A stretch of 64,000 bases of DNA from Deltaproteobacteria bacterium (GTDB taxonomy: Bacteria > Desulfobacterota > Desulfomonilia > UBA1062): the NCBI GenBank assembly GCA_035352355.1, contig DAOPXM010000009.1, forward strand, positions 39,957 through 103,956, in the 5' to 3' direction. Shown here one piece after another: positions 17,996 to 29,740 of the stretch. Every line of letters begins with the position of its first letter. The first letter of the stretch is position 1. The position numbers were made by a program, and so were the translations under genes. The notes below the pieces were generated by a model. It was not told the origin of the DNA, did not search any database, and saw only the letters and a list, made by a program, of their open reading frames with translations.

Positions 17996-19177
17996 TCAGA
18001 TCTTTTCCACCTCGACGTATTTCCCTCGCTCGGTGAGGACCTGCACGAGCTCCCTGACGTACACCATGCGCATGGGCTCCCCCCGGATGATGTCCGCCAC
18101 CTGGTTCGGGTTGATGGCGGAGCCCACGATGAGGCGGATCTCGTCGGCCAGGAGCAGGGAGCGGGCGAGCTGGGTCGAGGCGTCGTTGTCATGGGGGAGG
18201 TCGTAGATGGTCTTCGACGTCCTCAGGATCTCCGCGGCCAGGCCCAGGGTGAGGATGCCCTCGGTGACGAGGTCGACCCCCTTCAGGCGCGCCGTGGGAG
18301 GCGATCCCTTCTTAGGTGCCGGCTCGTTCTGGCCCCGCTTCGAGGGGGGGACCCAGTTCACCACGAGCTCTTCCTTGAGCACCCGGGCCGCCAGCTGCGC
18401 CGTGGATCCGCCGCAGATGATCTTCTCGCCCTCGGAGGCCATGAGCCTCGAGACCGCGAACTCGTCGAGCTCCTTGTTGGCAGGCGGCCCCGTGAGCACG
18501 GTGGCGGTGATGGCGGGCCTGACCTTCATGCCCACCACGGTGGCGTCGTCCCCGGGCTTGTCGTCGTAGAGCTTTCTGCAGGTGTTCGTCAGGGCCTGGG
18601 TGAGCTTGTAGGTGTCGATGATGCCGGCCTTCAGGAAGCGCTGCACGGCGAGCGCGATGTTGTCCCACCCCCAGCCCAGCCGGTAGATGCCTCCCAGGCC
18701 GGCGTGGACGTACCCGTCGCTGATCATGATCATGAAGTCGTTTTCCTGAAGCGTAAAACGGGCCTCCCGGATCTTCCGGTCCTTCACCATGCGCTCTTCC
18801 ATGGGCAGCTTCACGATGGCGTGGTCCCTCACGAAGATCAGGGGGGGGCAGTCGAACTCCACGAGGTGGGCTTCCTGGCCGTTCTTCACGGTGAGCACCG
18901 CGAACGTGGCATAGGCGAGCTTGCGGACGCTGCACTCGGGCAGGGTCTCCACCAGGGTCTGGAGCACGTCTTCGAGGGGCGCCCCGGATTCGAACATTCG
19001 GGCGGCGATCTCGGACGTGAGCGTGGAGAGGATGCTCGCCTTGACGCCCGACCCCAGGCCGTCCGAGAGCACGGCCACGAAGGTGTCCGCCGTCTTGCGC
19101 ACCATGACCGAATCCCCGCACAGCTCCTCGTTGGCCTTGTTCAGGTACGACCAGGAGTATTCGACGATCTGCCTCAC
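17996..19177 (-). CDS. SpoIIE/PP2C-family Ser/Thr phosphatase with an unassigned C-terminal domain of about 150 aa
   Basis: CGDSVMV...FVAVLSDGLGSGVKASI...ATFAVLTV...MISDGYVHAG. The GTG start at 19177 overlaps the upstream stop (GTGA). The track ORF extends to 19759, which lies inside the upstream gene. Confidence 0.85.
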   Translation of the reverse strand: MRQIVEYSWSYLNKANEELCGDSVMVRKTADTFVAVLSDGLGSGVKASILSTLTSEIAARMFESGAPLEDVLQTLVETLPECSVRKLAYATFAVLTVKNGQEAHLVEFDCPPLIFVRDHAIVKLPMEERMVKDRKIREARFTLQENDFMIMISDGYVHAGLGGIYRLGWGWDNIALAVQRFLKAGIIDTYKLTQALTNTCRKLYDDKPGDDATVVGMKVRPAITATVLTGPPANKELDEFAVSRLMASEGEKIICGGSTAQLAARVLKEELVVNWVPPSKRGQNEPAPKKGSPPTARLKGVDLVTEGILTLGLAAEILRTSKTIYDLPHDNDASTQLARSLLLADEIRLIVGSAINPNQVADIIRGEPMRMVYVRELVQVLTERGKYVEVEKI

Positions 19178-20892
19178 TTGCCGCCTTCCTCCCCGAGGAG
19201 CTTCGCCAGGTGGGAAAAGATGGTCTTGCTCTCGGCCGTGGTCTCGCCCAAGAGGTGGGCGATCTCGTGGGCCACGCGCATCTGCTTGCTCACCACCTCG
19301 CGAGTCCTCTGGAGCGTCTCTTCGCGGATGGCGTTGAACTTCTCCTTCTCCCTCTCCCGCTCGGTGACGTCGCGGATGACGGCCACCAAGAGTCCCTGGC
19401 CCTCCACAGGAACCACGGTCTGCTTCGTGACGATGTCTTCCCTGATGCGGCAGGCCTTGGCGTACACCGGCTGCTTCGTGTCCCTCACCGAGATGTAGTC
19501 GTCGAGCACGGACACGAGGGTCGACAGGTGCTTGCCCTCGACGTCGGCGAGCTTGCACTGGAAGAGGGCCTCGGCGGAGGGCGACATGTCGTTGATGATG
19601 AGGTTGTTGTCGAAGATGATGATGGCGTTGGGGATGAGGTCCATCACGACCTGGCGCAGGGATTCGGAGCGGCTGCGCATGTTGGGTATGCACATGGTGG
19701 CCTCGGCCATGCCCCTCAATGTCGCCACCGCCTTTTCCCGGCAGCTCGAGTAGCCGCACGCCCCGCAGTTGAGCTCGTCCTCCCTGGTGTACTTGTTGAC
19801 CCTGTGGAGCACCTCCTGGATCTGCTCTTCGGAAAACTCCGGGACGTAGACCTTGCGGTCCCGGTATGTCCGGGTCAGGTCAGGCCATTCCTCACGGGGG
19901 ATGTGAAGGTCGTTCTGCCGCCTGGCGTTGAACTCGATGATCTTCTGCCGCGCCAGGTAGAGGCTTCCGGAGAGGCCGGCCATGGCAGGCCCGTTGACGC
20001 ACCCGCCCTTGCAGGCCAGGAGCTCCACGATGCCCGCTTTGAGCGTGCCGGCCCGGATGTCCGAGAGGATGTCACCAATGGAATCGAGCCCGGAGGCCAC
20101 GATCATGGAGCCCTCGAGGATGTCCGTGTTCATCCTGGCGGTGCCGACGAGCCCGCCTTCGATGGGGAAGAGGCGCGCCATCTCCGGGGTCGCCTCACTG
20201 GAGGGCTCTTCTCCCGGCTGCAGGGTCACGCCGTTCTCGATGAAGAGCTCGAGCAGCCCCCGGAAGGTGATGACCGCGTCGATCACCCCCGATACCGACT
20301 CGGCGTGCATCTCCGCCTTCTTCGCTATGCAGGGCCCCACGAACACGACGTATGCGTCTTCTCCGTACTTCTTCTTGAGCAGGCGGCCGTGGGCGATCAT
20401 GGGGGACACGATGGGCGCCAGGTGGCCGATGAGGTCGGGGTGATACTGCTCGATGAGGTTCACCACCACCGGGCACGACGAGGTGATGATGGGCCAGCGG
20501 TCCCGGTTAGCCTCCATGTATTCGCGATGGGCGAGACCCACGATCTCGGCGCCGATGGCCGTCTCTTCGGCCGCATGGCAGCCCAGATCGAGGAGGGCCT
20601 TTTCCATCTCGGCAAAGCTGCCCATGTTGAAGAAGGCCGGCGCCGACGGCGCCACCGAGGCCACGATCTTGAGACCCCTGTCCCTGGCCCCCTCGATCTC
20701 CTGGCGGGCGCTCTGGATGCTCTTGGCCTCCTGGGGACAGACGCGCACGCAGGTGCCGCAGATGATGCAGAGCTCTGGCACCACGTTGGCCTGGTGCTCC
20801 TTGACCCGGATGGCCTTGACGCCGCAGTTGCGCACGCACAGGTAGCAGTCGCGGCAGCGGGCGGGGTTGGTCATGATGACCGGTTCGTTCAT
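19174..20892 (-). CDS. sensory-type [FeFe]-hydrogenase-like protein with a C-terminal PAS domain (HydS/HfsB-like)
   Basis: N-terminal 2x CxxCxxCxxxC. H-domain motifs are TSSCP, GPCIAKKAE and ELLACKGGCVNGP. A PAS-like segment follows (LIPNAIIIFDNNLIINDMSPSAEALFQCKLADVEGKHL). Start is the ATG at 20892 with AAGGAGGGA upstream. Confidence 0.85.
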   Translation of the reverse strand: MNEPVIMTNPARCRDCYLCVRNCGVKAIRVKEHQANVVPELCIICGTCVRVCPQEAKSIQSARQEIEGARDRGLKIVASVAPSAPAFFNMGSFAEMEKALLDLGCHAAEETAIGAEIVGLAHREYMEANRDRWPIITSSCPVVVNLIEQYHPDLIGHLAPIVSPMIAHGRLLKKKYGEDAYVVFVGPCIAKKAEMHAESVSGVIDAVITFRGLLELFIENGVTLQPGEEPSSEATPEMARLFPIEGGLVGTARMNTDILEGSMIVASGLDSIGDILSDIRAGTLKAGIVELLACKGGCVNGPAMAGLSGSLYLARQKIIEFNARRQNDLHIPREEWPDLTRTYRDRKVYVPEFSEEQIQEVLHRVNKYTREDELNCGACGYSSCREKAVATLRGMAEATMCIPNMRSRSESLRQVVMDLIPNAIIIFDNNLIINDMSPSAEALFQCKLADVEGKHLSTLVSVLDDYISVRDTKQPVYAKACRIREDIVTKQTVVPVEGQGLLVAVIRDVTEREREKEKFNAIREETLQRTREVVSKQMRVAHEIAHLLGETTAESKTIFSHLAKLLGEEGGK

Positions 20893-20935: not shown

Positions 20936-21202
20936 CTACTTCTTGAGCAGGGCGCTGTTTGCCCTGGGCAGGATCTCCCGGTGGAAGAACCCCTCCGCAT
21001 CCTCGGGTCGGATGCCGCTGAACGCGACATCGCCCACGCGGACGGAGACCCCCTTCGAGCAGGTGTCCATGCAGAAGGCTCCGACGATGTCCACCAGTCC
21101 GGTCAGGCTCTCCTTCTCGATGAGGCGCTGGAACTCGGCTGCAAGCTCGTCAGAGCCGCGGATGCTGCATGAGCTGCCGACGCATATGGTCACGATGAGC
21201 AT
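20936..21202 (-). CDS. thioredoxin-like [2Fe-2S] ferredoxin
   Basis: MLIVTICVGSSCSIRG (Cx4C) and FCMDTC (Cx3C); 88 aa. Lies 13 nt downstream of the fusion hydrogenase stop. Confidence 0.75.
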   Translation of the reverse strand: MLIVTICVGSSCSIRGSDELAAEFQRLIEKESLTGLVDIVGAFCMDTCSKGVSVRVGDVAFSGIRPEDAEGFFHREILPRANSALLKK

Positions 21203-21215
21203 GTCTTCCGTCCTC

Positions 21216-24200
21216 TCACCCGTCGAGCAGCGACGCGAGATGGGTGTCAATGAACCCGGCGGCGTCGGCCGTGTCGATGCCGGAGATGATCTTCTGGCCC
21301 ACCACGACGTTTGGCCCGCCTTCGCACTGGCCGGTGCAGAACCGCGCCTTGATCCGGAAGCGCTCCGAGAGCCCCCTGCGCCTCAGCTCGGCCGCGAGGC
21401 CCTCGAGGAGCTTCCAGGACCCCTTGACATAGCAGTTCGTGCCGATGCAGACCCCCACGTCGATGACGGGCAGCTCCTTCAGGATCACCTCGGCCTGCTT
21501 TTCCTCGAACCGCATGGAGCGGCGGCGGTAGGTGGTGTGGAGCGCGTGGTGCGACGTCTCGCTCACGGGCTGACCCAGCCAGTTTTCGTATATGGCCTGG
21601 ATGGCGGGGTTGTCCTGGCTCTTCCTCACGGGCGCCTCCTGGTCGAGCCGGTAGAGGACCTCGAGACGCGCCGCCGTGTCGCTGGCAATCTCGGGCGCAG
21701 GGTTGCCTGAGCCGTTGATGCAGCCGCCGGGGCAGGCCATGACCTCGATGAGGTCGTAGGGGGCGTCGCCGGAGCGGATGCGGTCGATGAGGTTCTGGGC
21801 GTTCTGCAGTCCGCTCACCACGGCAAGCCTCACCGTGACGTCACCTAAGGTCACGTTGGTCTCCTTCACCCCCTGCAGGCCGCGCACGCCTTCGTAGGTG
21901 AAGCTGTCGAGGCGCTTGCCCGTGACCCGCTCTGCAGCCAGGCGGAGCGCCGCTTCAGCCACGCCGCCGCTGGCCCCGAAGATGACGCCCGAGCCGCTCG
22001 CCTTGCCGAAGAAGGTGTCCACCGGGATGGGTTCGATGGCCTTCGGGTCGATACGGCGTTCGGAGAACATCCCGATGACGTCGTTCGTGGTGAGGACCAC
22101 GTCCACGTCCGCTATGCCGTCGTGGCTGAACTCCGGCCTCGCGGCCTCGTACTTCTTGGCGTTGCAGGGCATGATGGACACGAAGTAGAGGAGCGCCGGG
22201 TCCACCTTGAGCTGTCTGGCGAAGTACTGCTTCATGACCGCGCCGAACATCTGCTGGGGCGACTTGCAGGAAGACAGGTGTGGCAGGATGTCCGGTGCCA
22301 TCTTCTCGCAGTAGTTGATCCAGGCCGGGCAGCAGGAGGTGATCTGCGGCAGCACCCCGCCCTCGGCGAGGCGGCTCAGGAACTCGGTGCCCTCCTCCAT
22401 GATGGTGAGGTCCGCCGCCCAGCAGGTGTCGAAGACGAAGTTGAAGCCGAGCCGCTTGAGACCGGCGCTCAGGACGGCCATGGCATCCTCGGGGGAGATG
22501 CCGTAGTGCTGGGCGAACGCTGCCCGCACGGCCGGTGCGATCTGGGCCACCACCGTGAGCTCCGGGTTCTGGAGCGCCCTGTACACCTTGGGGAGCACCG
22601 GCTTCATGACCAGGGCGCCGGTGGGGCAGATGGAGGCGCAGTGGCCGCAGGCCACGCAGGTGGTCAGATCGAGGGGCCGGTGGTCGTTGGGTCCGATGGT
22701 GAGGACGCCCTTGGTCTCGTGGAAGCTCAGGGCGGACACGCCCTCCATCTCGCGGCACACCTTGAGGCACAGGCCGCACAGGATGCACTTGCCGGGGTCC
22801 CGGGTGATGATGGGGTGATTGTCGTCGACCGGCAGGGGCGTCGCCGGAAGCGTGTGGTCGATCGTGACGTCGTAGAGAGTCGCGCAGTCCCGCAGGTCGC
22901 ACCCGTAGCGCTCGGTGCAGCCGCACGCCAGGCACCGGGCCGCCTCGTCCATGGTGGTGTCCATGTCCCAGGTCTTCGACGACTCGTCGAAGGTCCCCTT
23001 CCTCGATTCAGGGGAGAGGACCGCGATCTCCCGGCGCTCGGCAGGCCTCACGCCCTTGAATTCCTCCGCCGGGATATCCTTCCAGCTCCCCTTCGAGCAG
23101 GTGTAGGGCTCGGGGGGAAGTTCGACCGTACCGGTCCGGATGAGGGAGTCGATGGCCTCGGCAGCCCTCCTGCCCGCGCCGATGGCGGCGATGGCGATGT
23201 CCGGCCCAGTGACGCAGTCCCCGCCCGAGAACACCCAGGGGTCAGCGGTCTGCATGGTCACCGGGTCTGCCTTGATGTTGCCCCATTTGTCCAGCAGGTT
23301 CGCGTTGCCCACGCTGGCAGCGTCCACTGCCTGGCCGATGGCCGAGATGATCGTGTTGGCGGTGATGGTGAAGTCCGAGCCCGCCACCGGGACCGGCCTC
23401 CTCCTGCCGCTCTTGTCCGGCTCGCCCAGCTCCATGCGGGTACAGGTCATCTGGAGCATGGAGCCGGCCTGCCTGATGGAGACGGGCGCCGTGAGGTACT
23501 GGATGTTCACCCCCTCCTCGATGGCCTCCTCGATCTCGATCTCCTGGGCGGGCATCTCGTGGCGGGTGCGGCGGTAGGCGATGGTCACGTCCCTGGCACC
23601 CAGCCTGAGCGCGCTGCGGGCAGCGTCCATGGCGGTGTTGCCGCCGCCGATGACGAGGACCCTCTCCCCGATGTCGGGCTTTTCGCCCCTGGCCAGCCTG
23701 GCCAGGAAGTCGAGGCCGGACATGACGCCGGGCAGGTCTTCGCCGTCGACGCCGATGGCGGTGGCCTTCTGGGCCCCCAGGCCTATGAACACGGCCGTGA
23801 ATCCGTCGCGCTTCAGGGACTCGATGGTGAAATCACGGCCGAGCTTCTTGTTGTACCGTATCTCGACACCCAGGTCGAGGATGGACCTGATCTCCTCGTC
23901 GAGCTGCCTTTCCGGCAGGCGGTAGTAGGGGATGCCCCAGCGGAGCATGCCGCCTGCTGCCTCCTGCATCTCGAAGATGGTCACGCTGTGGCCTTTCCTC
24001 CGGAGGAAGTACGCGGCGGTGAGGCCTGCCGGGCCGGCGCCCACCACGGCAACCTTCACGCCGGTGTCCGGTGCGCACTCGGGCGAGTAGGGGGACAGCT
24101 GGTACCGGTCCCAGTCCGCCACGAAGCGCTTGATCGCGTTGATGTTCACCGCGCCGTCCACCGCGTTGCGGCGGCACTCGGACTCGCAGGGATGGGGGCA

Positions 24201-24638
24201 GACGCGGCCGCAGACCCCGGGCAGGGGATTGCTCTCCTTGATGACCTCGAGGGCCTCGGCGAAGTTGCCCGAGGATACGTGATAGATGTATTTCTGGATG
24301 TCGATGTTGGCCGGGCACCTCTGCACGCAGGGGGCCACGCAGTCGCCGTAGTGGTTCTTGAGCAGGCCCTGGAGGTAGATCCGGCGGTAGCTCGTCAGCG
24401 CGTCCGATTGGGTCCTAACGATCATGCCCTCGGAGACACGGGTCGAAGTGGCGGAGACGAACCTGGTCTTTCCCCCTTCGATGACCTCAACGAACGCGAC
24501 TTCCACCGTGCTCGGGGCGCTGACCCTCGGGTCGTAGCCCAGTGCCGGGATGGAGATGCCGTGTGCCCGTGCTGCGTCGATGATGGTCGTGGTGCTGTCC
24601 GCTGTACACATTTTGTCGTCGATGGTTAAGGTGAGCAT
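21216..24638 (-). CDS. [FeFe]-hydrogenase fused to a GltD-like NAD(P)H:FAD module (glutamate-synthase-linked, group A2-like), with a C-terminal Trx-like [2Fe-2S] domain
   Basis: Domain order: Cys-less ferredoxin-like N-domain; GltD Fe-S (CVAPCVQRCP, GVCGRVCPHPCESECRRN); two Rossmann motifs (VVGAGPAGLTAA, VIGGGNTAMDAA); 2x[4Fe-4S] (CILCGLCLKVC, CVACGHCASICP); H-cluster motifs TSCCPAW, MPCNAKKYE and EVMACPGGCINGSG; SSU-like tail; then CIGTNC...CTGQC. Start set at the second ATG (24638), 5 nt after GGAGG; the track ORF runs to 24725. Confidence 0.9.
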   Translation of the reverse strand: MLTLTIDDKMCTADSTTTIIDAARAHGISIPALGYDPRVSAPSTVEVAFVEVIEGGKTRFVSATSTRVSEGMIVRTQSDALTSYRRIYLQGLLKNHYGDCVAPCVQRCPANIDIQKYIYHVSSGNFAEALEVIKESNPLPGVCGRVCPHPCESECRRNAVDGAVNINAIKRFVADWDRYQLSPYSPECAPDTGVKVAVVGAGPAGLTAAYFLRRKGHSVTIFEMQEAAGGMLRWGIPYYRLPERQLDEEIRSILDLGVEIRYNKKLGRDFTIESLKRDGFTAVFIGLGAQKATAIGVDGEDLPGVMSGLDFLARLARGEKPDIGERVLVIGGGNTAMDAARSALRLGARDVTIAYRRTRHEMPAQEIEIEEAIEEGVNIQYLTAPVSIRQAGSMLQMTCTRMELGEPDKSGRRRPVPVAGSDFTITANTIISAIGQAVDAASVGNANLLDKWGNIKADPVTMQTADPWVFSGGDCVTGPDIAIAAIGAGRRAAEAIDSLIRTGTVELPPEPYTCSKGSWKDIPAEEFKGVRPAERREIAVLSPESRKGTFDESSKTWDMDTTMDEAARCLACGCTERYGCDLRDCATLYDVTIDHTLPATPLPVDDNHPIITRDPGKCILCGLCLKVCREMEGVSALSFHETKGVLTIGPNDHRPLDLTTCVACGHCASICPTGALVMKPVLPKVYRALQNPELTVVAQIAPAVRAAFAQHYGISPEDAMAVLSAGLKRLGFNFVFDTCWAADLTIMEEGTEFLSRLAEGGVLPQITSCCPAWINYCEKMAPDILPHLSSCKSPQQMFGAVMKQYFARQLKVDPALLYFVSIMPCNAKKYEAARPEFSHDGIADVDVVLTTNDVIGMFSERRIDPKAIEPIPVDTFFGKASGSGVIFGASGGVAEAALRLAAERVTGKRLDSFTYEGVRGLQGVKETNVTLGDVTVRLAVVSGLQNAQNLIDRIRSGDAPYDLIEVMACPGGCINGSGNPAPEIASDTAARLEVLYRLDQEAPVRKSQDNPAIQAIYENWLGQPVSETSHHALHTTYRRRSMRFEEKQAEVILKELPVIDVGVCIGTNCYVKGSWKLLEGLAAELRRRGLSERFRIKARFCTGQCEGGPNVVVGQKIISGIDTADAAGFIDTHLASLLDG

Positions 24639-24839
24639 CATATCCTCCTCGGTCTGGGGTGCGCTGAGAGCTGGTTTTCCTGAAATGCCTTCAGGATATT
24701 GATCGGGGTATGGTGTATCATCCACGCTACCTCAAGATCATTCATGGCTGCTGTGTGGGCTATTTTATATCTTCTCAGTATCATTTATGAATATACAGCA
24801 AGTAACATAGGGAAGGCAATTTAAAAAAGTGTGAAAGGT

Positions 24840-25400
24840 TCAAGATAAGCGGTCTCTGTCCAGGATGGTGTTAATATTGGCGAATGTGATTTCGGGGTCT
24901 GTGTAGGCGCGGATGGTTTCATCGGGAATTCTCAGTGTGTTCACGCGGTCGAGCAGGGTGAATATCTTCCGCTCCCCCCTGTCCAGGAGGTCTTTCACCA
25001 CCGGGAGGACCCGCCGGTGATAGATGGCGTGGAGCGGTTCCCTGCCTTTCGACCAGACAGGTATGACCACGTCGTGCTCCCCGGACCGGGAGATCATGTA
25101 CGAGATGAATTCGCGGCTCAGTCTCGGCATGTCTGCGGCGAACACGAAGCACTGCGGTGTCCCGGCCACGGTGAGCGCGGTGTAGATCCCGCCCAAGGGA
25201 CCGTAACCGGGGAAGATGTCCTCGGCCACCCGGTGAGCCTCGAGCCCGGGGCGCCTGTTCCCGATGAGGATGACCTCGTCGAACAGGGGGGTGATCACAT
25301 CCACGACGTGGTCCACGAGGCTCTTTCCCTGGAAGGATGAGATGACCTTGTCGGAGCCGAACCTGCTCGACCTGCCGCCTATGAGTACGATGCCTGTCAT
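24840..25400 (-). CDS. mobA: molybdenum cofactor guanylyltransferase MobA
   Basis: MTGIVLIGGRSSRFGSDK (LxGGxSxRxG motif), about 186 aa. Start trimmed to 25400. Confidence 0.85.
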   Translation of the reverse strand: MTGIVLIGGRSSRFGSDKVISSFQGKSLVDHVVDVITPLFDEVILIGNRRPGLEAHRVAEDIFPGYGPLGGIYTALTVAGTPQCFVFAADMPRLSREFISYMISRSGEHDVVIPVWSKGREPLHAIYHRRVLPVVKDLLDRGERKIFTLLDRVNTLRIPDETIRAYTDPEITFANINTILDRDRLS

Positions 25401-26308: not shown

Positions 26309-26698
26309 ATGGCGAAGCTGACTATTAACGATCTCAAGAAGATCAAGGAAAAGGTTGAAAAAGAGGATCAGTTCCGGGCAGGCACCAAGCGCGTGAAGCT
26401 GACGGTTCACATGGGCACCTGCGGAATCGCGTCCGGCGCCAAGGGCATCCTCGATACGTTCATGAATGAAATCAGCGAAGCCAATGTGGAGGACGTGCTC
26501 ATCACCACGTCCGGCTGCATCGGCATCTGCTCCCGCGAACCCCTTGCGACGGTTGAAGAGCAGGGTAAGGAAGCCATCGTCTACGAGTACCTCACCGAGA
26601 ACAAGGCACGCCAGATCTTCAAGCGGCACGTCCTGGCCGGCGAGATCCAGACGGAGTTCGTCCTGGCACGGGGCAAAGAGCAGGAAGGGGGGAAGTAA
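26309..26698 (+). CDS. hndB: small thioredoxin-like [2Fe-2S] ferredoxin subunit (HndB-like)
   Basis: VHMGTCGIASGA and SGCIGICSREP; 129 aa. Lies between the NuoE-like and NuoF-like genes, as in Hnd operons. Confidence 0.8.
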   Translation: MAKLTINDLKKIKEKVEKEDQFRAGTKRVKLTVHMGTCGIASGAKGILDTFMNEISEANVEDVLITTSGCIGICSREPLATVEEQGKEAIVYEYLTENKARQIFKRHVLAGEIQTEFVLARGKEQEGGK

Positions 26699-29600
26699 AT
26701 GAAGGTCTTTCGAGCTCATATACTGGTATGCGGCGGTACCGGCTGCAGGGCGTCCGGAAGCGAGGACGTCCATGGGGCAGTCGTCAGGGAAATAGCGGCA
26801 AAAGGGCTCTCAGATGAGGTCGCCATCGTCGAAACCGGCTGCAACGGTTTCTGCGCAGCAGGCCCCATCATGGTCATCTACCCCGAGGGCACCTTCTATC
26901 AGTACGTCAAGAGTGACGACGTAAAAGAGATCATCGAAGAGCACATCATCAAGGGCCGCCCGGTCCAGAGGCTCATGTACAGGGAGCCCGTCACCGAGAA
27001 GGCCATCCCCCACATGCTCGACATCCCCTTCTTCGGCAAGCAGCAGCTCATCGCTCTGAAGAACAGGGGCCTCATCGACGCCGAGAAGATCGACGAGTAC
27101 ATCGCCCGCGACGGCTACCTGGGCGCTGCCAAGGCGCTCACCGAGATGACCCAGGACGAGGTCATCGAGGAGGTGAAGAAGTCCGGTCTCCGCGGCAGAG
27201 GCGGCGGCGGTTTCCCCACCGGCATGAAGTGGCAGTTCGCCAAGAAGTCCCAGAGCGACATCAAGTTCATCCTCTGCAACGCCGACGAGGGCGACCCGGG
27301 CGCGTTCATGGACCGCTCGGTCCTCGAAGCCGACCCCCATGCAGTGCTCGAGGGCATGATCATCGGCGGCTATGCCATCGGCGCCAACAAGGGCTACATC
27401 TACTGCCGGGCCGAGTATCCGCTGGCCATCAAGCGCCTCGACATCGCCATCCGGCAGGCCAAGGAGTACGGCCTCCTGGGAGAGAACATCCTGGGCTCCA
27501 ACTACTCCCTGGACATCGAGGTCTACCAGGGCGCAGGCGCGTTCGTCTGCGGCGAAGAGACCGCGCTCATGGCATCCATCGAAGGCAAGCGCGGCATGCC
27601 CAGGCCCAGGCCCCCATTCCCTGCATCCCAGGGCCTGTGGAAGAAACCCTCGGTTCTAAACAACGTCGAAACCTTTGCCAACATCCCGCAGATCGTCCTG
27701 AAGGGTGGGGCATGGTACTCCTCCATCGGCACCGAGCGCTCCAAGGGCACCAAGGTGTTCGCGCTCACCGGTGCGGTGAACAACGTGGGTCTGGTGGAAG
27801 TCCCCATGGGCACCCCCATCGGCGACATCATCTTCGACATCGGCGGCGGCATCCCGGGCGGCAAGCAGTACAAGGCGGCCCAGCTGGGCGGCCCCTCCGG
27901 CGGCTGCATCCCGGCCTCGGCGCTGAACACACTCACCGACTATGAAGAAATCATCAAGCTCGGCGCCATCATGGGCTCCGGCGGCCTCATCGTCATGGAC
28001 GAGGACACCTGTATGGTGGACACGGCCCGGTTCTTCATGGAGTTCTGCCAGGAAGAGTCCTGCGGCAAGTGCACCCCGTGCCGTGAAGGCACCAAGCGCA
28101 TGCTTGAGGTCCTCCACCGGATCTGCCACGGCGAAGGCAAGGATGGGGACATCGAGCTCCTCGAAGAGCTCGCGGCCACCATCAAGGACTCCGCGCTCTG
28201 CGGCCTCGGCCAGACGGCCCCCAACCCCGTGCTCTCCACCATCCGCTACTTCAGGGACGAGTACGAGGCCCACATCTACGACAAGAAGTGCCCGGCAGCG
28301 GTGTGCTCCTCGCTGTTCAAATCCCCATGCCAGTCCGCATGCCCCATCGAGATGGACGTCCCGGCCTACATCGCGCTGATCAGGGCGGGCAGGCTGGAAG
28401 ACGCCTACAGGGTCATGCTCAGGACCAACCCGTTCCCCGGCGTCTGCGGCCGCGTGTGCCCGCAGTTCTGCGCCTCGAAGTGCCGCAGGCAGCAGCTCGA
28501 CGAGCCCATGGCCATCGCGTGGCTCAAGCGCTACATCGCAGACAACGGACGCAAGCCCGTCATCGAAGCCGTACCGGTCACCCGCAAGGAAAAGATCGCG
28601 GTCATCGGCGCAGGCCCGGCCGGTCTCACCGCTGCACAGGACCTGGCGAAGCGCGGCTACAAGGTAACGGTGTTCGAAGAGCTTCCCCATGCGGGCGGCA
28701 TGATGCGCTACGCCATCCCCGAGTACCGGCTCCCGAGAAACATCATCGAGGAAGAGGTGAAGGACATCGAAGCCCTGGGTGTCGAGATCAGGACCAACAC
28801 CAGGGTAGGCAAGGACATCACCTTTGACAAGCTCCGCAAGGACTATGACGTGGTGATTCTCGCAGTGGGCGCGCACAAGAGCTGGACGCTGGACATCGAG
28901 GGCGAAGACCTCCAGGGCGTCTGGGGCGCAACCGAGTTCCTCAGGGAAGTCAACCTGGGCAAGGACGTGAAGATCGGCTCCAAGGTCGCCATCGTGGGCG
29001 GCGGCAACTCCGCCATCGACGCGGCGAGGACCGCCGTGCGTCTCGGCGCCGGCGACGTCACCATTCTCTATCGCAGGGAGCGCAAGGACATGCCTGCCTG
29101 GGAGCATGAGATCGTGGCAGCCGAGCACGAAGGCGTGAAGATCGAATACCTCGTGGCCCCCGTGAAGCTCGTGGGCGAGAAAGGCAAGCTCACCGGCGTG
29201 GTCTGCCAGAAGATGAAGCTGGGCGAGTTCGACCGCTCCGGCAGGCGTAAGCCGGTCCCCATCCCCGGCAGCGAGTACACCATCTCCATCGACACCATCA
29301 TCCCGGCCATCTCCCAGTCGTCCGACACCACCTTCATCCCCGACGGGTCCGACGTGAAGAAGGACAAGTGGGGCGGCATCGAGAAGGTGGCCAAGAGCAA
29401 AAACAGGACGCTCGCCAAGGGCGTGTACATCATCGGCGACGCGGCCACCGGGCCGGCCACGGTGGTGGAAGCCATCGCCATGGGCCACGACGTGGCCAAG
29501 GACGTGGACGCCTCCATCAGGGCCTGGAACAACGAGCCCGCCTACAGGGAGCCCGAGGCCGATAAGATCGACATCCCGTTCGAGGTGAACGAGGAGCTTG

Positions 29601-29740
29601 TCGTCACGCCCAAGGAGTTCATGCCCGAGAAGGAGATCGCGGCGAGGGTGGCCAATTTCGCAGAGGTCGAGTTGGGCTACACGAAAGAAAAGGCCTACAA
29701 AGAGGCGTGCAGATGCCTCAGGTGCGATGCGGAGCTGTAA
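26699..29740 (+). CDS. hndC: NuoF-like flavoprotein subunit (HndC/HydB) fused to a C-terminal GltD/NfnB-like NAD(P)H oxidoreductase
   Basis: Trx-like N-domain (LVCGGTGC...CNGFC). NuoF core (GGGGFPTGMKWQF, ESCGKCTPCREG). Then KKCPAAVCSSLFKSPCQSACP, GVCGRVCPQFCASKCRR, VIGAGPAGLTAA and IVGGGNSAIDAA; 1013 aa. Confidence 0.9.
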   Translation: MKVFRAHILVCGGTGCRASGSEDVHGAVVREIAAKGLSDEVAIVETGCNGFCAAGPIMVIYPEGTFYQYVKSDDVKEIIEEHIIKGRPVQRLMYREPVTEKAIPHMLDIPFFGKQQLIALKNRGLIDAEKIDEYIARDGYLGAAKALTEMTQDEVIEEVKKSGLRGRGGGGFPTGMKWQFAKKSQSDIKFILCNADEGDPGAFMDRSVLEADPHAVLEGMIIGGYAIGANKGYIYCRAEYPLAIKRLDIAIRQAKEYGLLGENILGSNYSLDIEVYQGAGAFVCGEETALMASIEGKRGMPRPRPPFPASQGLWKKPSVLNNVETFANIPQIVLKGGAWYSSIGTERSKGTKVFALTGAVNNVGLVEVPMGTPIGDIIFDIGGGIPGGKQYKAAQLGGPSGGCIPASALNTLTDYEEIIKLGAIMGSGGLIVMDEDTCMVDTARFFMEFCQEESCGKCTPCREGTKRMLEVLHRICHGEGKDGDIELLEELAATIKDSALCGLGQTAPNPVLSTIRYFRDEYEAHIYDKKCPAAVCSSLFKSPCQSACPIEMDVPAYIALIRAGRLEDAYRVMLRTNPFPGVCGRVCPQFCASKCRRQQLDEPMAIAWLKRYIADNGRKPVIEAVPVTRKEKIAVIGAGPAGLTAAQDLAKRGYKVTVFEELPHAGGMMRYAIPEYRLPRNIIEEEVKDIEALGVEIRTNTRVGKDITFDKLRKDYDVVILAVGAHKSWTLDIEGEDLQGVWGATEFLREVNLGKDVKIGSKVAIVGGGNSAIDAARTAVRLGAGDVTILYRRERKDMPAWEHEIVAAEHEGVKIEYLVAPVKLVGEKGKLTGVVCQKMKLGEFDRSGRRKPVPIPGSEYTISIDTIIPAISQSSDTTFIPDGSDVKKDKWGGIEKVAKSKNRTLAKGVYIIGDAATGPATVVEAIAMGHDVAKDVDASIRAWNNEPAYREPEADKIDIPFEVNEELVVTPKEFMPEKEIAARVANFAEVELGYTKEKAYKEACRCLRCDAEL

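Follow-up and report, generated by a model that had tools for sequence, protein, structure and literature searches.

Can NADPH and hydrogen be interconverted by one polypeptide that carries its own flavin, its own chain of iron-sulfur clusters and its own H-cluster? This question is raised by a gene for a fused [FeFe]-hydrogenase on the minus strand of a 64,000-nucleotide (nt) stretch of DNA from a member of the Deltaproteobacteria (assembly GCA_035352355.1, contig DAOPXM010000009.1, positions 39,957 to 103,956 of the forward strand), called the window here. An original prediction from the DNA letters had described a single-chain fusion of 1140 amino acids (aa) that joins a GltD-type NAD(P)H module to an [FeFe]-hydrogenase behind an N-terminal ferredoxin-like domain devoid of Cys ligands, and had connected it with NADP(H). 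Its coordinates and length hold, but the strand had to be corrected; the plus-strand reading of 21216-24638 gives a translation full of stops and was rejected. The link to NADP(H) is plausible, and the product is in our view fairly likely to be a self-contained NADP(H):H2 oxidoreductase that works in both directions as a single polypeptide.

Domains were assigned with Pfam and the group of the H-cluster domain (H-domain) with NCBIfam models. Ligand residues were counted over 95 members of the clade to which the protein belongs, called Cys-less here after its N-terminal domain (N-domain), and over 17 sequences of its sister clade; residue numbers are counted throughout from the Met at 24641 (Table 1). 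Both sets of models confirmed the domain order of the single-chain fusion, and the predicted GltD-type module, H-cluster motifs, small-subunit-like (SSU-like) tail and thioredoxin-like (Trx-like) C-terminal domain are all complete, as judged from Pfam and the ligand residues. In the Fe-S subdomain of the GltD-type module, Cys 101, 105, 109, 144, 148, 152 and 156 and K171 are invariant in the 95 and the 17 sequences, and these eight residues would be enough for two [4Fe-4S] clusters. The Rossmann region carries GAGPAG, GGGNTAMD and the invariant Y356-R357-R358, and can be aligned continuously with NfnA (9bov_A) and StnC (8oh5_C), which bind NADPH. Between the flavin module and the ferredoxin-type dicluster we found a CxxCxCx5C motif that the original prediction had missed; this site is the counterpart of cluster A3 in NfnA and of the FS4C site in CpI. 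Taken over the GltD subdomain (seven Cys and K171), the CxxCxCx5C motif (four Cys), the dicluster (eight), the H-cluster (four) and the C-terminal domain (four), the ligands outside the N-domain are present in 95/95 clade members, except C662 (94/95).

The flavin-containing half of the protein has its closest relatives in NfnA and StnC, through which NADPH feeds the bifurcating transhydrogenases NfnABC and StnABC. Residues 3-684 align end-to-end with two solved proteins, C. saccharolyticus NfnA (9bov_A, E = 8e-182) and S. ovata StnC (8oh5_C, E = 2e-161), and a Foldseek search with an AlphaFold2 (AF2) model of the fusion protein returned the same relatives in the same rank order as the sequence search, with NfnA/StnC at the top. 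In NfnA/StnC, electrons pass from NADPH along FAD-A7-A6-A3-A2-A1 to B1 of the partner flavoprotein, while A4/A5 branch off towards an inactive formate-dehydrogenase-like domain and lead no further (PMC11829005, PMC10482914). Cluster A7 is held there by C108, C147, C151 and K170; the flavin of StnC is non-bifurcating, and the bifurcating NfnB has Glu at the position of the Lys (PMC11829005, PMC10482914). The counterparts of the A7 ligands in the fusion protein are C109, C148, C152 and K171, the last of which lines up with the Lys-170 ligand of NfnA/StnC. The NfnA proteins of C. saccharolyticus (9bov) and Thermococcus sibiricus (9n5u) and StnC (8oh5) share with it the order Fer2_4, GltD/NfnL-like FAD/NADPH insert, CxxCxCx5C and 2x[4Fe-4S], together with the Lys ligand of the flavin-proximal cluster. 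However, they keep an N-terminal [2Fe-2S] cluster (A1 in NfnA, C4 in StnC) that feeds a NuoF-like partner and that was lost in the fusion protein, and their C-terminal part is a formate-dehydrogenase-like domain without catalytic function, where the fusion protein has a complete H-domain, an SSU-like tail and a Trx-like [2Fe-2S] domain. Unlike NfnABC/StnABC, its operon contains no BC-type partner genes. In terms of BfuA-type traits, the GltD insert, the Lys-ligated [4Fe-4S] site and CxxCxCx5C are present at the sequence level, whereas the N-terminal cluster, the Fdh/NuoG-like C-terminal domain and adjacent BfuB/BfuC genes are absent.

This likeness suggests descent from the 'A' subunit of Bfu-type bifurcating complexes, with the roles of the branches in NfnA/StnC reversed: the side branch would end in an equipped H-domain, and A1 would have been removed by the loss of four Cys. 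The cofactor content and the electron path deduced by homology would lead from NADPH to FAD, the Lys-ligated [4Fe-4S], the second [4Fe-4S], the CxxCxCx5C cluster, the two ferredoxin-type [4Fe-4S] clusters and finally the H-cluster; the electron-transfer distances are estimated from homologous structures. The enzyme is probably non-bifurcating, because its proximal Lys ligand is that of StnC/NfnA and not the Glu of NfnB, and because no NuoE/NuoF-type partner would be required.

The catalytic half carries a canonical group-A H-domain. The H-cluster motifs T768-S-C770-C771-P, M-P-C826-N-A-K-K-Y-E and E966-V-M-A-C970-P-G-G-C974 are invariant in the 112 sequences (95 + 17), with the L2 motif of the sister clade reading VPC where the fusion protein has MPC. 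Also invariant are the proton-path residues C770, E749/E750, E753, R757 and S790/S794, which we take to be the equivalents of C299, E279, E282, R286 and S319 of CpI. Frames for the maturases hydG, hydE and hydF lie at 31.7-37.1 kb of the window. The closest solved H-domains are those of HydA from group A3 HydABC complexes (T. kivui 8a6t, A. woodii 7q4v, T. maritima 7p5h; E = 4e-131 to 4e-106): residues 605-1043 match 8a6t_A at E = 4e-131, and residues 606-1122 align with 7p5h_A, including the C-terminal Trx-like [2Fe-2S] domain that T. maritima HydA shares with the fusion protein. HndD, encoded in the window, is 44% identical to it over residues 575-1045. HydABC, however, requires the HydB/HydC flavoproteins and an N-terminal [2Fe-2S] cluster, whereas the fusion protein has its own flavin module, of the GltD and not the NuoF type, and no N-terminal cluster. 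Two extra Cys of the H-domain, C740 (22422-22424, FDTC740WAA) and C778 (22308-22310, INYC778EKM), occur in 94-95/95 members of the Cys-less clade, and their positions in the sister clade hold A/S/T and V.

The original prediction had placed the protein in group A2 of HydDB, the glutamate-synthase-linked class. The H-domain scores 452.8 bits with TIGR02512 (FeFe_hydrog_A; cut-off 405.95), which assigns it to group A, and the NCBIfam subgroup models stayed under their cut-offs (A6, 610 against 765; Clostridial, 463 against 900). Group A2 and the dimeric CD(M2f) type (Cthe_0425-0426), which are presumably the same grouping, likewise couple a group-A H-domain to a GltD-type NAD(P)H flavoprotein. 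In HydDB, membership of group A2 follows from a gene for a GltD-type protein directly downstream of that for the catalytic subunit, and the group is regarded as putative and of undetermined role (PMC5037454); the function of GltD-linked [FeFe] hydrogenases is likewise given as putative or undetermined in a tabulated survey (PMC5037454; table in PMC3561251). In group A2, GltD has a gene of its own that follows the one for a short HydA, whereas here it is fused upstream of the H-domain, lying in cis between the N-domain and the next Fe-S domain as in NfnA/StnC, and the downstream gene encodes an 88-aa Trx-like ferredoxin. Under the HydDB rule the gene would not be called A2, and the label fits only loosely, as a functional analogy. 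The tie to glutamate synthase was rejected: no GltB-type gene lies nearby, the best match in the GltD family, PRK12814, stays below its cut-off (714 against 916 bits), and the closest relatives are NfnA/StnC.

The protein also differs from these relatives in its N-domain. When it was aligned to HndD of the window, to the Cys-bearing sister clade and to NfnA/StnC, the four Fer2_4 ligand columns held G35, V46, A49 and T65; none of the four Cys is kept, in agreement with the prediction, although the residues are not the L/S/V that had been proposed. The sole Cys of the domain, C12, stands in a non-ligand column and is found in 59/95 relatives. The fold is retained: the PF13510 match spans 79/82 profile positions and the secondary structure in the AF2 model is beta-beta-alpha-beta-beta-beta, that of a beta-grasp. 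Ligand Cys are missing from 95/95 full-length relatives (63-86% identity), whereas all four (CCCC) are found in 142/149 representatives of the wider family, taken one per 50%-identity cluster; in most of the remaining seven the N-terminus is truncated or unaligned. In a tree of residues 2-680 the Cys-less clade is monophyletic (support 1.0) and its sister group consists of Cys-bearing fusions from Cellulomonas and Clostridia (support 0.997), which indicates that the cluster was lost once.

Loss of the cluster was not followed by a relaxation of the sequence. The N-domain has a mean pairwise identity of 0.63 within the Cys-less clade, and its cluster-bearing equivalent in the sister clade one of 0.62. 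In the former cluster loop, G35, Y36, D37, P38, R39, E47 and A64 are each present in 95/95 sequences, and the loop carries the nearly invariant motif L-G-Y-D-P-R-V-S-P-P-S..E. This pattern indicates a domain under purifying selection, in which cluster loss is a trait fixed across the clade, and therefore one that is not simply decaying. The N-domain would then be a cluster-less structural relic with a new invariant loop.

The genetic context of the sister clade bears on the order in which cluster and partner were lost. The sister fusions (P0105-P0121; Cellulomonas spp. and Clostridium (Pseudoclostridium) thermosuccinogenes) come from cultured isolates and have the same architecture at 45-50% identity, but they keep all four N-terminal Cys and lack the second C-terminal Cys pair or the whole C-terminal domain. 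In C. thermosuccinogenes and Cellulomonas biazotea these Cys-bearing genes are lone genes too, so the idea that the N-terminal cluster tracks a NuoE/F partner was rejected, and partner loss appears to have preceded cluster loss. Lone fusion genes, with no small ferredoxin gene, are also characteristic of a Syntrophorhabdus-type subclade of the Cys-less proteins; at one such locus (L033) the gene is flanked by a UvrD helicase and a hybrid histidine kinase. Among the orthologue loci, L033, L057 and L058 have no NuoE/F neighbours. The whole fusion clade thus looks genetically stand-alone, and the N-terminal cluster had probably become a side branch by the time the Desulfobacterota lineage lost it. 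Such stand-alone genetics supports the idea of a self-contained enzyme. Elsewhere in the representative library, seven separate stretches of a 4122-aa protein (P0122) match the fusion protein at 38% identity; P0122 could be a very large fusion of several hydrogenases or the product of faulty gene calling.

In the window the fusion gene is the first of four cassette genes, followed by those for the small ferredoxin, a HydS-like sensory hydrogenase and a PP2C-type phosphatase. This order is kept in ~44/53 species-level genomes, and no terminator-like site was seen on the gene's strand between the promoter matches and the end of the PP2C gene, as expected if the four genes are co-transcribed. Full-length orthologues at 63-86% identity were found in the 53 species-level genomes (>100 protein clusters). 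The 95 Cys-less relatives all derive from metagenome-assembled genomes, mostly of Smithella/Smithellaceae, Syntrophaceae/Syntrophales, Desulfomonilia and Syntrophorhabdus, and no cultured isolate was among the orthologue matches. Of 12 genomes from the genus of the window, two have an intact fusion gene, one of them being the window genome itself, and one further member of the family has the gene as well; it is an accessory gene.

The proposed reaction would suit organisms of this kind. The standard potentials (E0') are -320 mV for NADP+/NADPH and -414 mV for H+/H2, and the latter shifts by about +30 mV per tenfold drop in H2, so that NADPH-driven H2 formation becomes favourable below ~10^2 to 10^3 Pa H2; syntrophs live within that range. 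At the very low H2 of syntrophic Desulfobacterota, H2 formation from NADPH would be thermodynamically feasible without ferredoxin, and at higher H2 the reverse reaction could yield NADPH. The HydS-like sensor and the PP2C phosphatase probably couple the expression or the activity of the enzyme to H2; a sensory hydrogenase and a phosphatase in the same cassette would fit such H2-dependent control. The same logic, with direct flow from a pyridine nucleotide to H2 made feasible by the low H2 of syntrophy, would apply to Hyd1ABC of Syntrophomonas wolfei, one of the non-bifurcating NADH-dependent [FeFe] hydrogenases already known from syntrophs (PMC5626996). Hyd1ABC, however, is a multimeric NuoE/NuoF-type enzyme that uses NADH, whereas the fusion protein is a single chain of the GltD type that is probably NADPH-specific.

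Several observations weigh against a self-contained, non-bifurcating NADP(H):H2 oxidoreductase. R241, near N5 of the flavin, is shared by relatives that bifurcate and by relatives that do not, which puts bifurcation beyond what sequence alone can settle, and a preference for NADPH over NADH is suggested only by the homology to NfnA/StnC and the conserved YRR motif. The literature that we searched held no biochemical data on any family member, and the AF2 model is of moderate quality (predicted local distance difference test 79, predicted template modelling score 0.53). Hnd/HydABC operons often lie within a few kb of the orthologues, making an interaction possible. Finally, a simple linear path leaves the fully conserved C-terminal [2Fe-2S] domain without a function, and likewise the small ferredoxin co-transcribed with the fusion gene; the two could represent a second electron port. 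Such a port is central to the idea of a single-chain confurcating or bifurcating hydrogenase, in which NADPH would react at the FAD while a second carrier, ferredoxin or the small Trx-like ferredoxin, docks at the C-terminal [2Fe-2S]; we regard this as unlikely. It draws on a reciprocal pattern: the C-terminal ligands C1065, C1070, C1102 and C1106 (C-x4-C...C-x3-C; window 21324-21449) are kept in 95/95 members of the Cys-less clade, which has lost the N-terminal cluster, and the sister clade shows the opposite, with the N-terminal ligands kept and the second C-terminal Cys pair absent in 17/17, deleted in 11. Both sites are present in P0123 and P0124, two fusions that are more distant. The two sister lineages thus retain exactly one peripheral [2Fe-2S] each, which could reflect chance or a second electron port, and this reciprocal retention is the main reason why we leave the confurcating reading a small share of our confidence. 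It also gains from the small ferredoxin gene, which directly follows the fusion gene in most genomes, and from the ability of the GltD fold to bifurcate in NfnB (PMC10482914). Nevertheless, the proximal ligand is Lys as in the non-bifurcating StnC/NfnA, there is no NfnS-like or NuoF-like second flavin site, the small ferredoxin gene is absent beside Syntrophorhabdus-type orthologues, and the homologous C-terminal cluster of HydA in T. maritima HydABC is separated from all other clusters by >30 Å in the states that were resolved (PMC9499530). A complete confurcating hydrogenase without a NuoF-type subunit, into which a lower-potential carrier enters at the C-terminal [2Fe-2S], possibly via the small ferredoxin, and in which the retained site marks the port (the N-terminal one in the sister clade), seems quite improbable to us. 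Still more speculative is a role of the G-Y-D-P-R-V-S-P-P-S loop as a regulatory, possibly phospho-acceptor, surface for HydS-PP2C.

The conserved N-domain and the nearby operons could also be read as signs of docking, the fusion protein being an alternative catalytic subunit that binds HndABC (NuoE/NuoF-GltD) through its cluster-less N-domain, as the N-domain of NfnA does on NfnB. The unrelaxed conservation of the N-domain would agree with this, as would the contact of the equivalent domain with subunit B in Bfu enzymes (PMC11829005) and the Hnd operon of the window, which is divergent from the fusion gene and 1 kb away, such operons recurring near orthologues. But this operon has its own HndD, and no path by which electrons could reach B1 is known once the A1 cluster is missing. 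Many orthologues and the entire sister clade have no such neighbours, a stand-alone arrangement that weakens the case for docking, and the HndC-GltD gene is widespread in the genus (1013-aa frames matching HndC occur in many of its genomes), whereas the fusion gene is found in only 2-3 of 12 genomes; docking on HndABC therefore strikes us as improbable. That the gene is a chimera of the assembly, a pseudogene or a sensor-like paralogue without catalytic function has next to no likelihood. In one relative of the same genus (L056, 6001-12664; also G001, C15, ~201.4-204.9 kb), stops and frameshifts interrupt all four cassette genes, but the mobA-like and hndA/C/D genes on either side, at 65-89% identity, are intact; barring a local assembly error, the cassette seems to decay there as a unit. 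In the window, however, the frame of 1140 codons is intact and of coding type: the open frame (21216-24725, minus strand) begins with GTG and has no internal stops, and its GC content at third codon positions (0.91) matches that of real genes elsewhere in the 63% GC window. The conservation of the catalytic and cluster ligands outside the N-domain, with TIGR02512 above its cut-off, and the full-length orthologous loci in 53 species-level genomes ruled out such an origin.

The start of the gene can be placed with the help of its homologues. The ribosome-binding site GAGGAGG (24650-24644) lies 2 nt from ATG 24641 and 5 nt from ATG 24638, and since the second Met (ATG 24638) is the start in homologues, the product has ~1140 aa. 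A database protein (P0002) is 100% identical to it.

Table 1. Features of the fusion hydrogenase gene and of its neighbours, in window coordinates.
Feature	Position	Strand	Details
Fusion hydrogenase coding sequence	21216..24638	minus	~1140 aa; stop TGA 21216-21218; alternative ATG 24641
Fer2_4 (beta-grasp) N-domain	24366..24638	minus	residues 2-92; Pfam match 2-79, 39.3 bits (cut-off 22.8)
GltD/NfnL-type Fe-S subdomain	24102..24356	minus	residues 96-180; Pfam Fer4_20 at 101-179
FAD and NADPH Rossmann domains	23127..24074	minus	residues 190-505; Pfam Pyr_redox_2 at 196-490
All-Cys [4Fe-4S] motif C570-x2-C573-x-C575-x5-C581	22872..22946	minus	motif aligned in 9bov_A and 8oh5_C; four Cys invariant
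2x[4Fe-4S] ferredoxin-like domain	22602..22808	minus	residues 612-680; Pfam Fer4_7 and related; Fer4 dicluster match 618-676; eight ligand Cys conserved
H-cluster domain	21702..22559	minus	residues 695-980; Pfam Fe_hyd_lg_C 696-977, E = 1.5e-90
Small-subunit-like tail	21516..21674	minus	residues 990-1042; Pfam Fe_hyd_SSU 990-1041, 72.8 bits
C-terminal thioredoxin-like [2Fe-2S] domain	21237..21467	minus	residues 1059-1135; Pfam 2Fe-2S_thioredx (PF01257) 1061-1131, 25.6 bits (cut-off 24.8)
Two overlapping sigma-70-like promoter matches	24762..24819	minus	9/12 each, consensus matches only; AT-rich 200-nt upstream gap
Small Trx-like ferredoxin	20936..21202	minus	88 aa; C-x4-C...C-x3-C; begins 13 nt past the fusion stop
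Sensory-type [FeFe] hydrogenase (HydS-like)	19174..20892	minus	C-terminal FeS motif and PAS; Pfam; conserved cassette position
SpoIIE/PP2C-type phosphatase	17996..19177	minus	last of four cassette genes; Pfam SpoIIE; conserved position
HndC, NuoF-GltD fusion	26699-29740	plus	1013 aa; Trx-like 2Fe-2S, Complex1_51K, NADH_4Fe-4S and Fer4_20/Pyr_redox_2
HndB	26309-26698	plus	three of four Trx-like [2Fe-2S] Cys; first motif M-G-T-C instead of C-x4-C

We found no description of the fused NfnA-like topology or of a metal-free N-domain in the literature searched, and the family is abundant in databases under generic names. If the fusion protein is indeed a self-contained NADP(H):H2 oxidoreductase, it would be the simplest known coupling of NADPH and H2, achieved by a single polypeptide that needs neither ferredoxin nor NuoE/F subunits. 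It would also be a mirror image of NfnA/StnC, built on the same scaffold with the catalytic branch alive and the branch to the bifurcating core discarded, in which a former cluster domain, predicted to be metal-free, persists and yet is conserved. Such a design would be unsurprising in principle and potentially useful, being appealing for engineered NADPH-driven H2 production or H2-driven regeneration of NADPH. For Smithella, Syntrophus, Syntrophorhabdus and the Desulfomonilia of methanogenic systems it would add an unrecognised H2 route, which the classification schemes now used for hydrogenase inventories there would mislabel.

The surroundings of the cassette hold further redox genes. HndC is a NuoF-GltD fusion, and the predicted presence of a second GltD-linked hydrogenase in this island was thereby verified. 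The claim of five Trx-like [2Fe-2S] modules held for four of them (the C-terminal domain of the fusion protein, the small ferredoxin, HndA and the N-terminus of HndC), but not for HndB, which has three of the Cys. In many Smithella loci, and in L003 (15614-19365), a HATPase/DRTGG/PHP set followed by a NuoE-like gene lies 2-7 kb downstream of the cassette; this NuoE-like gene is the start of a HydABC-type operon, so that the fusion cassette and a bifurcating operon are recurrent neighbours. On the other side, a gene for a MobA-like NTP-transferase (24840-25400, minus strand) recurs upstream of the cassette at loci of the Desulfomonilia type (L001, L002, L004, L006, L007 and L056; 58-65% identity); it is co-directional with the cassette in the window and in L056 and divergent in the other loci.

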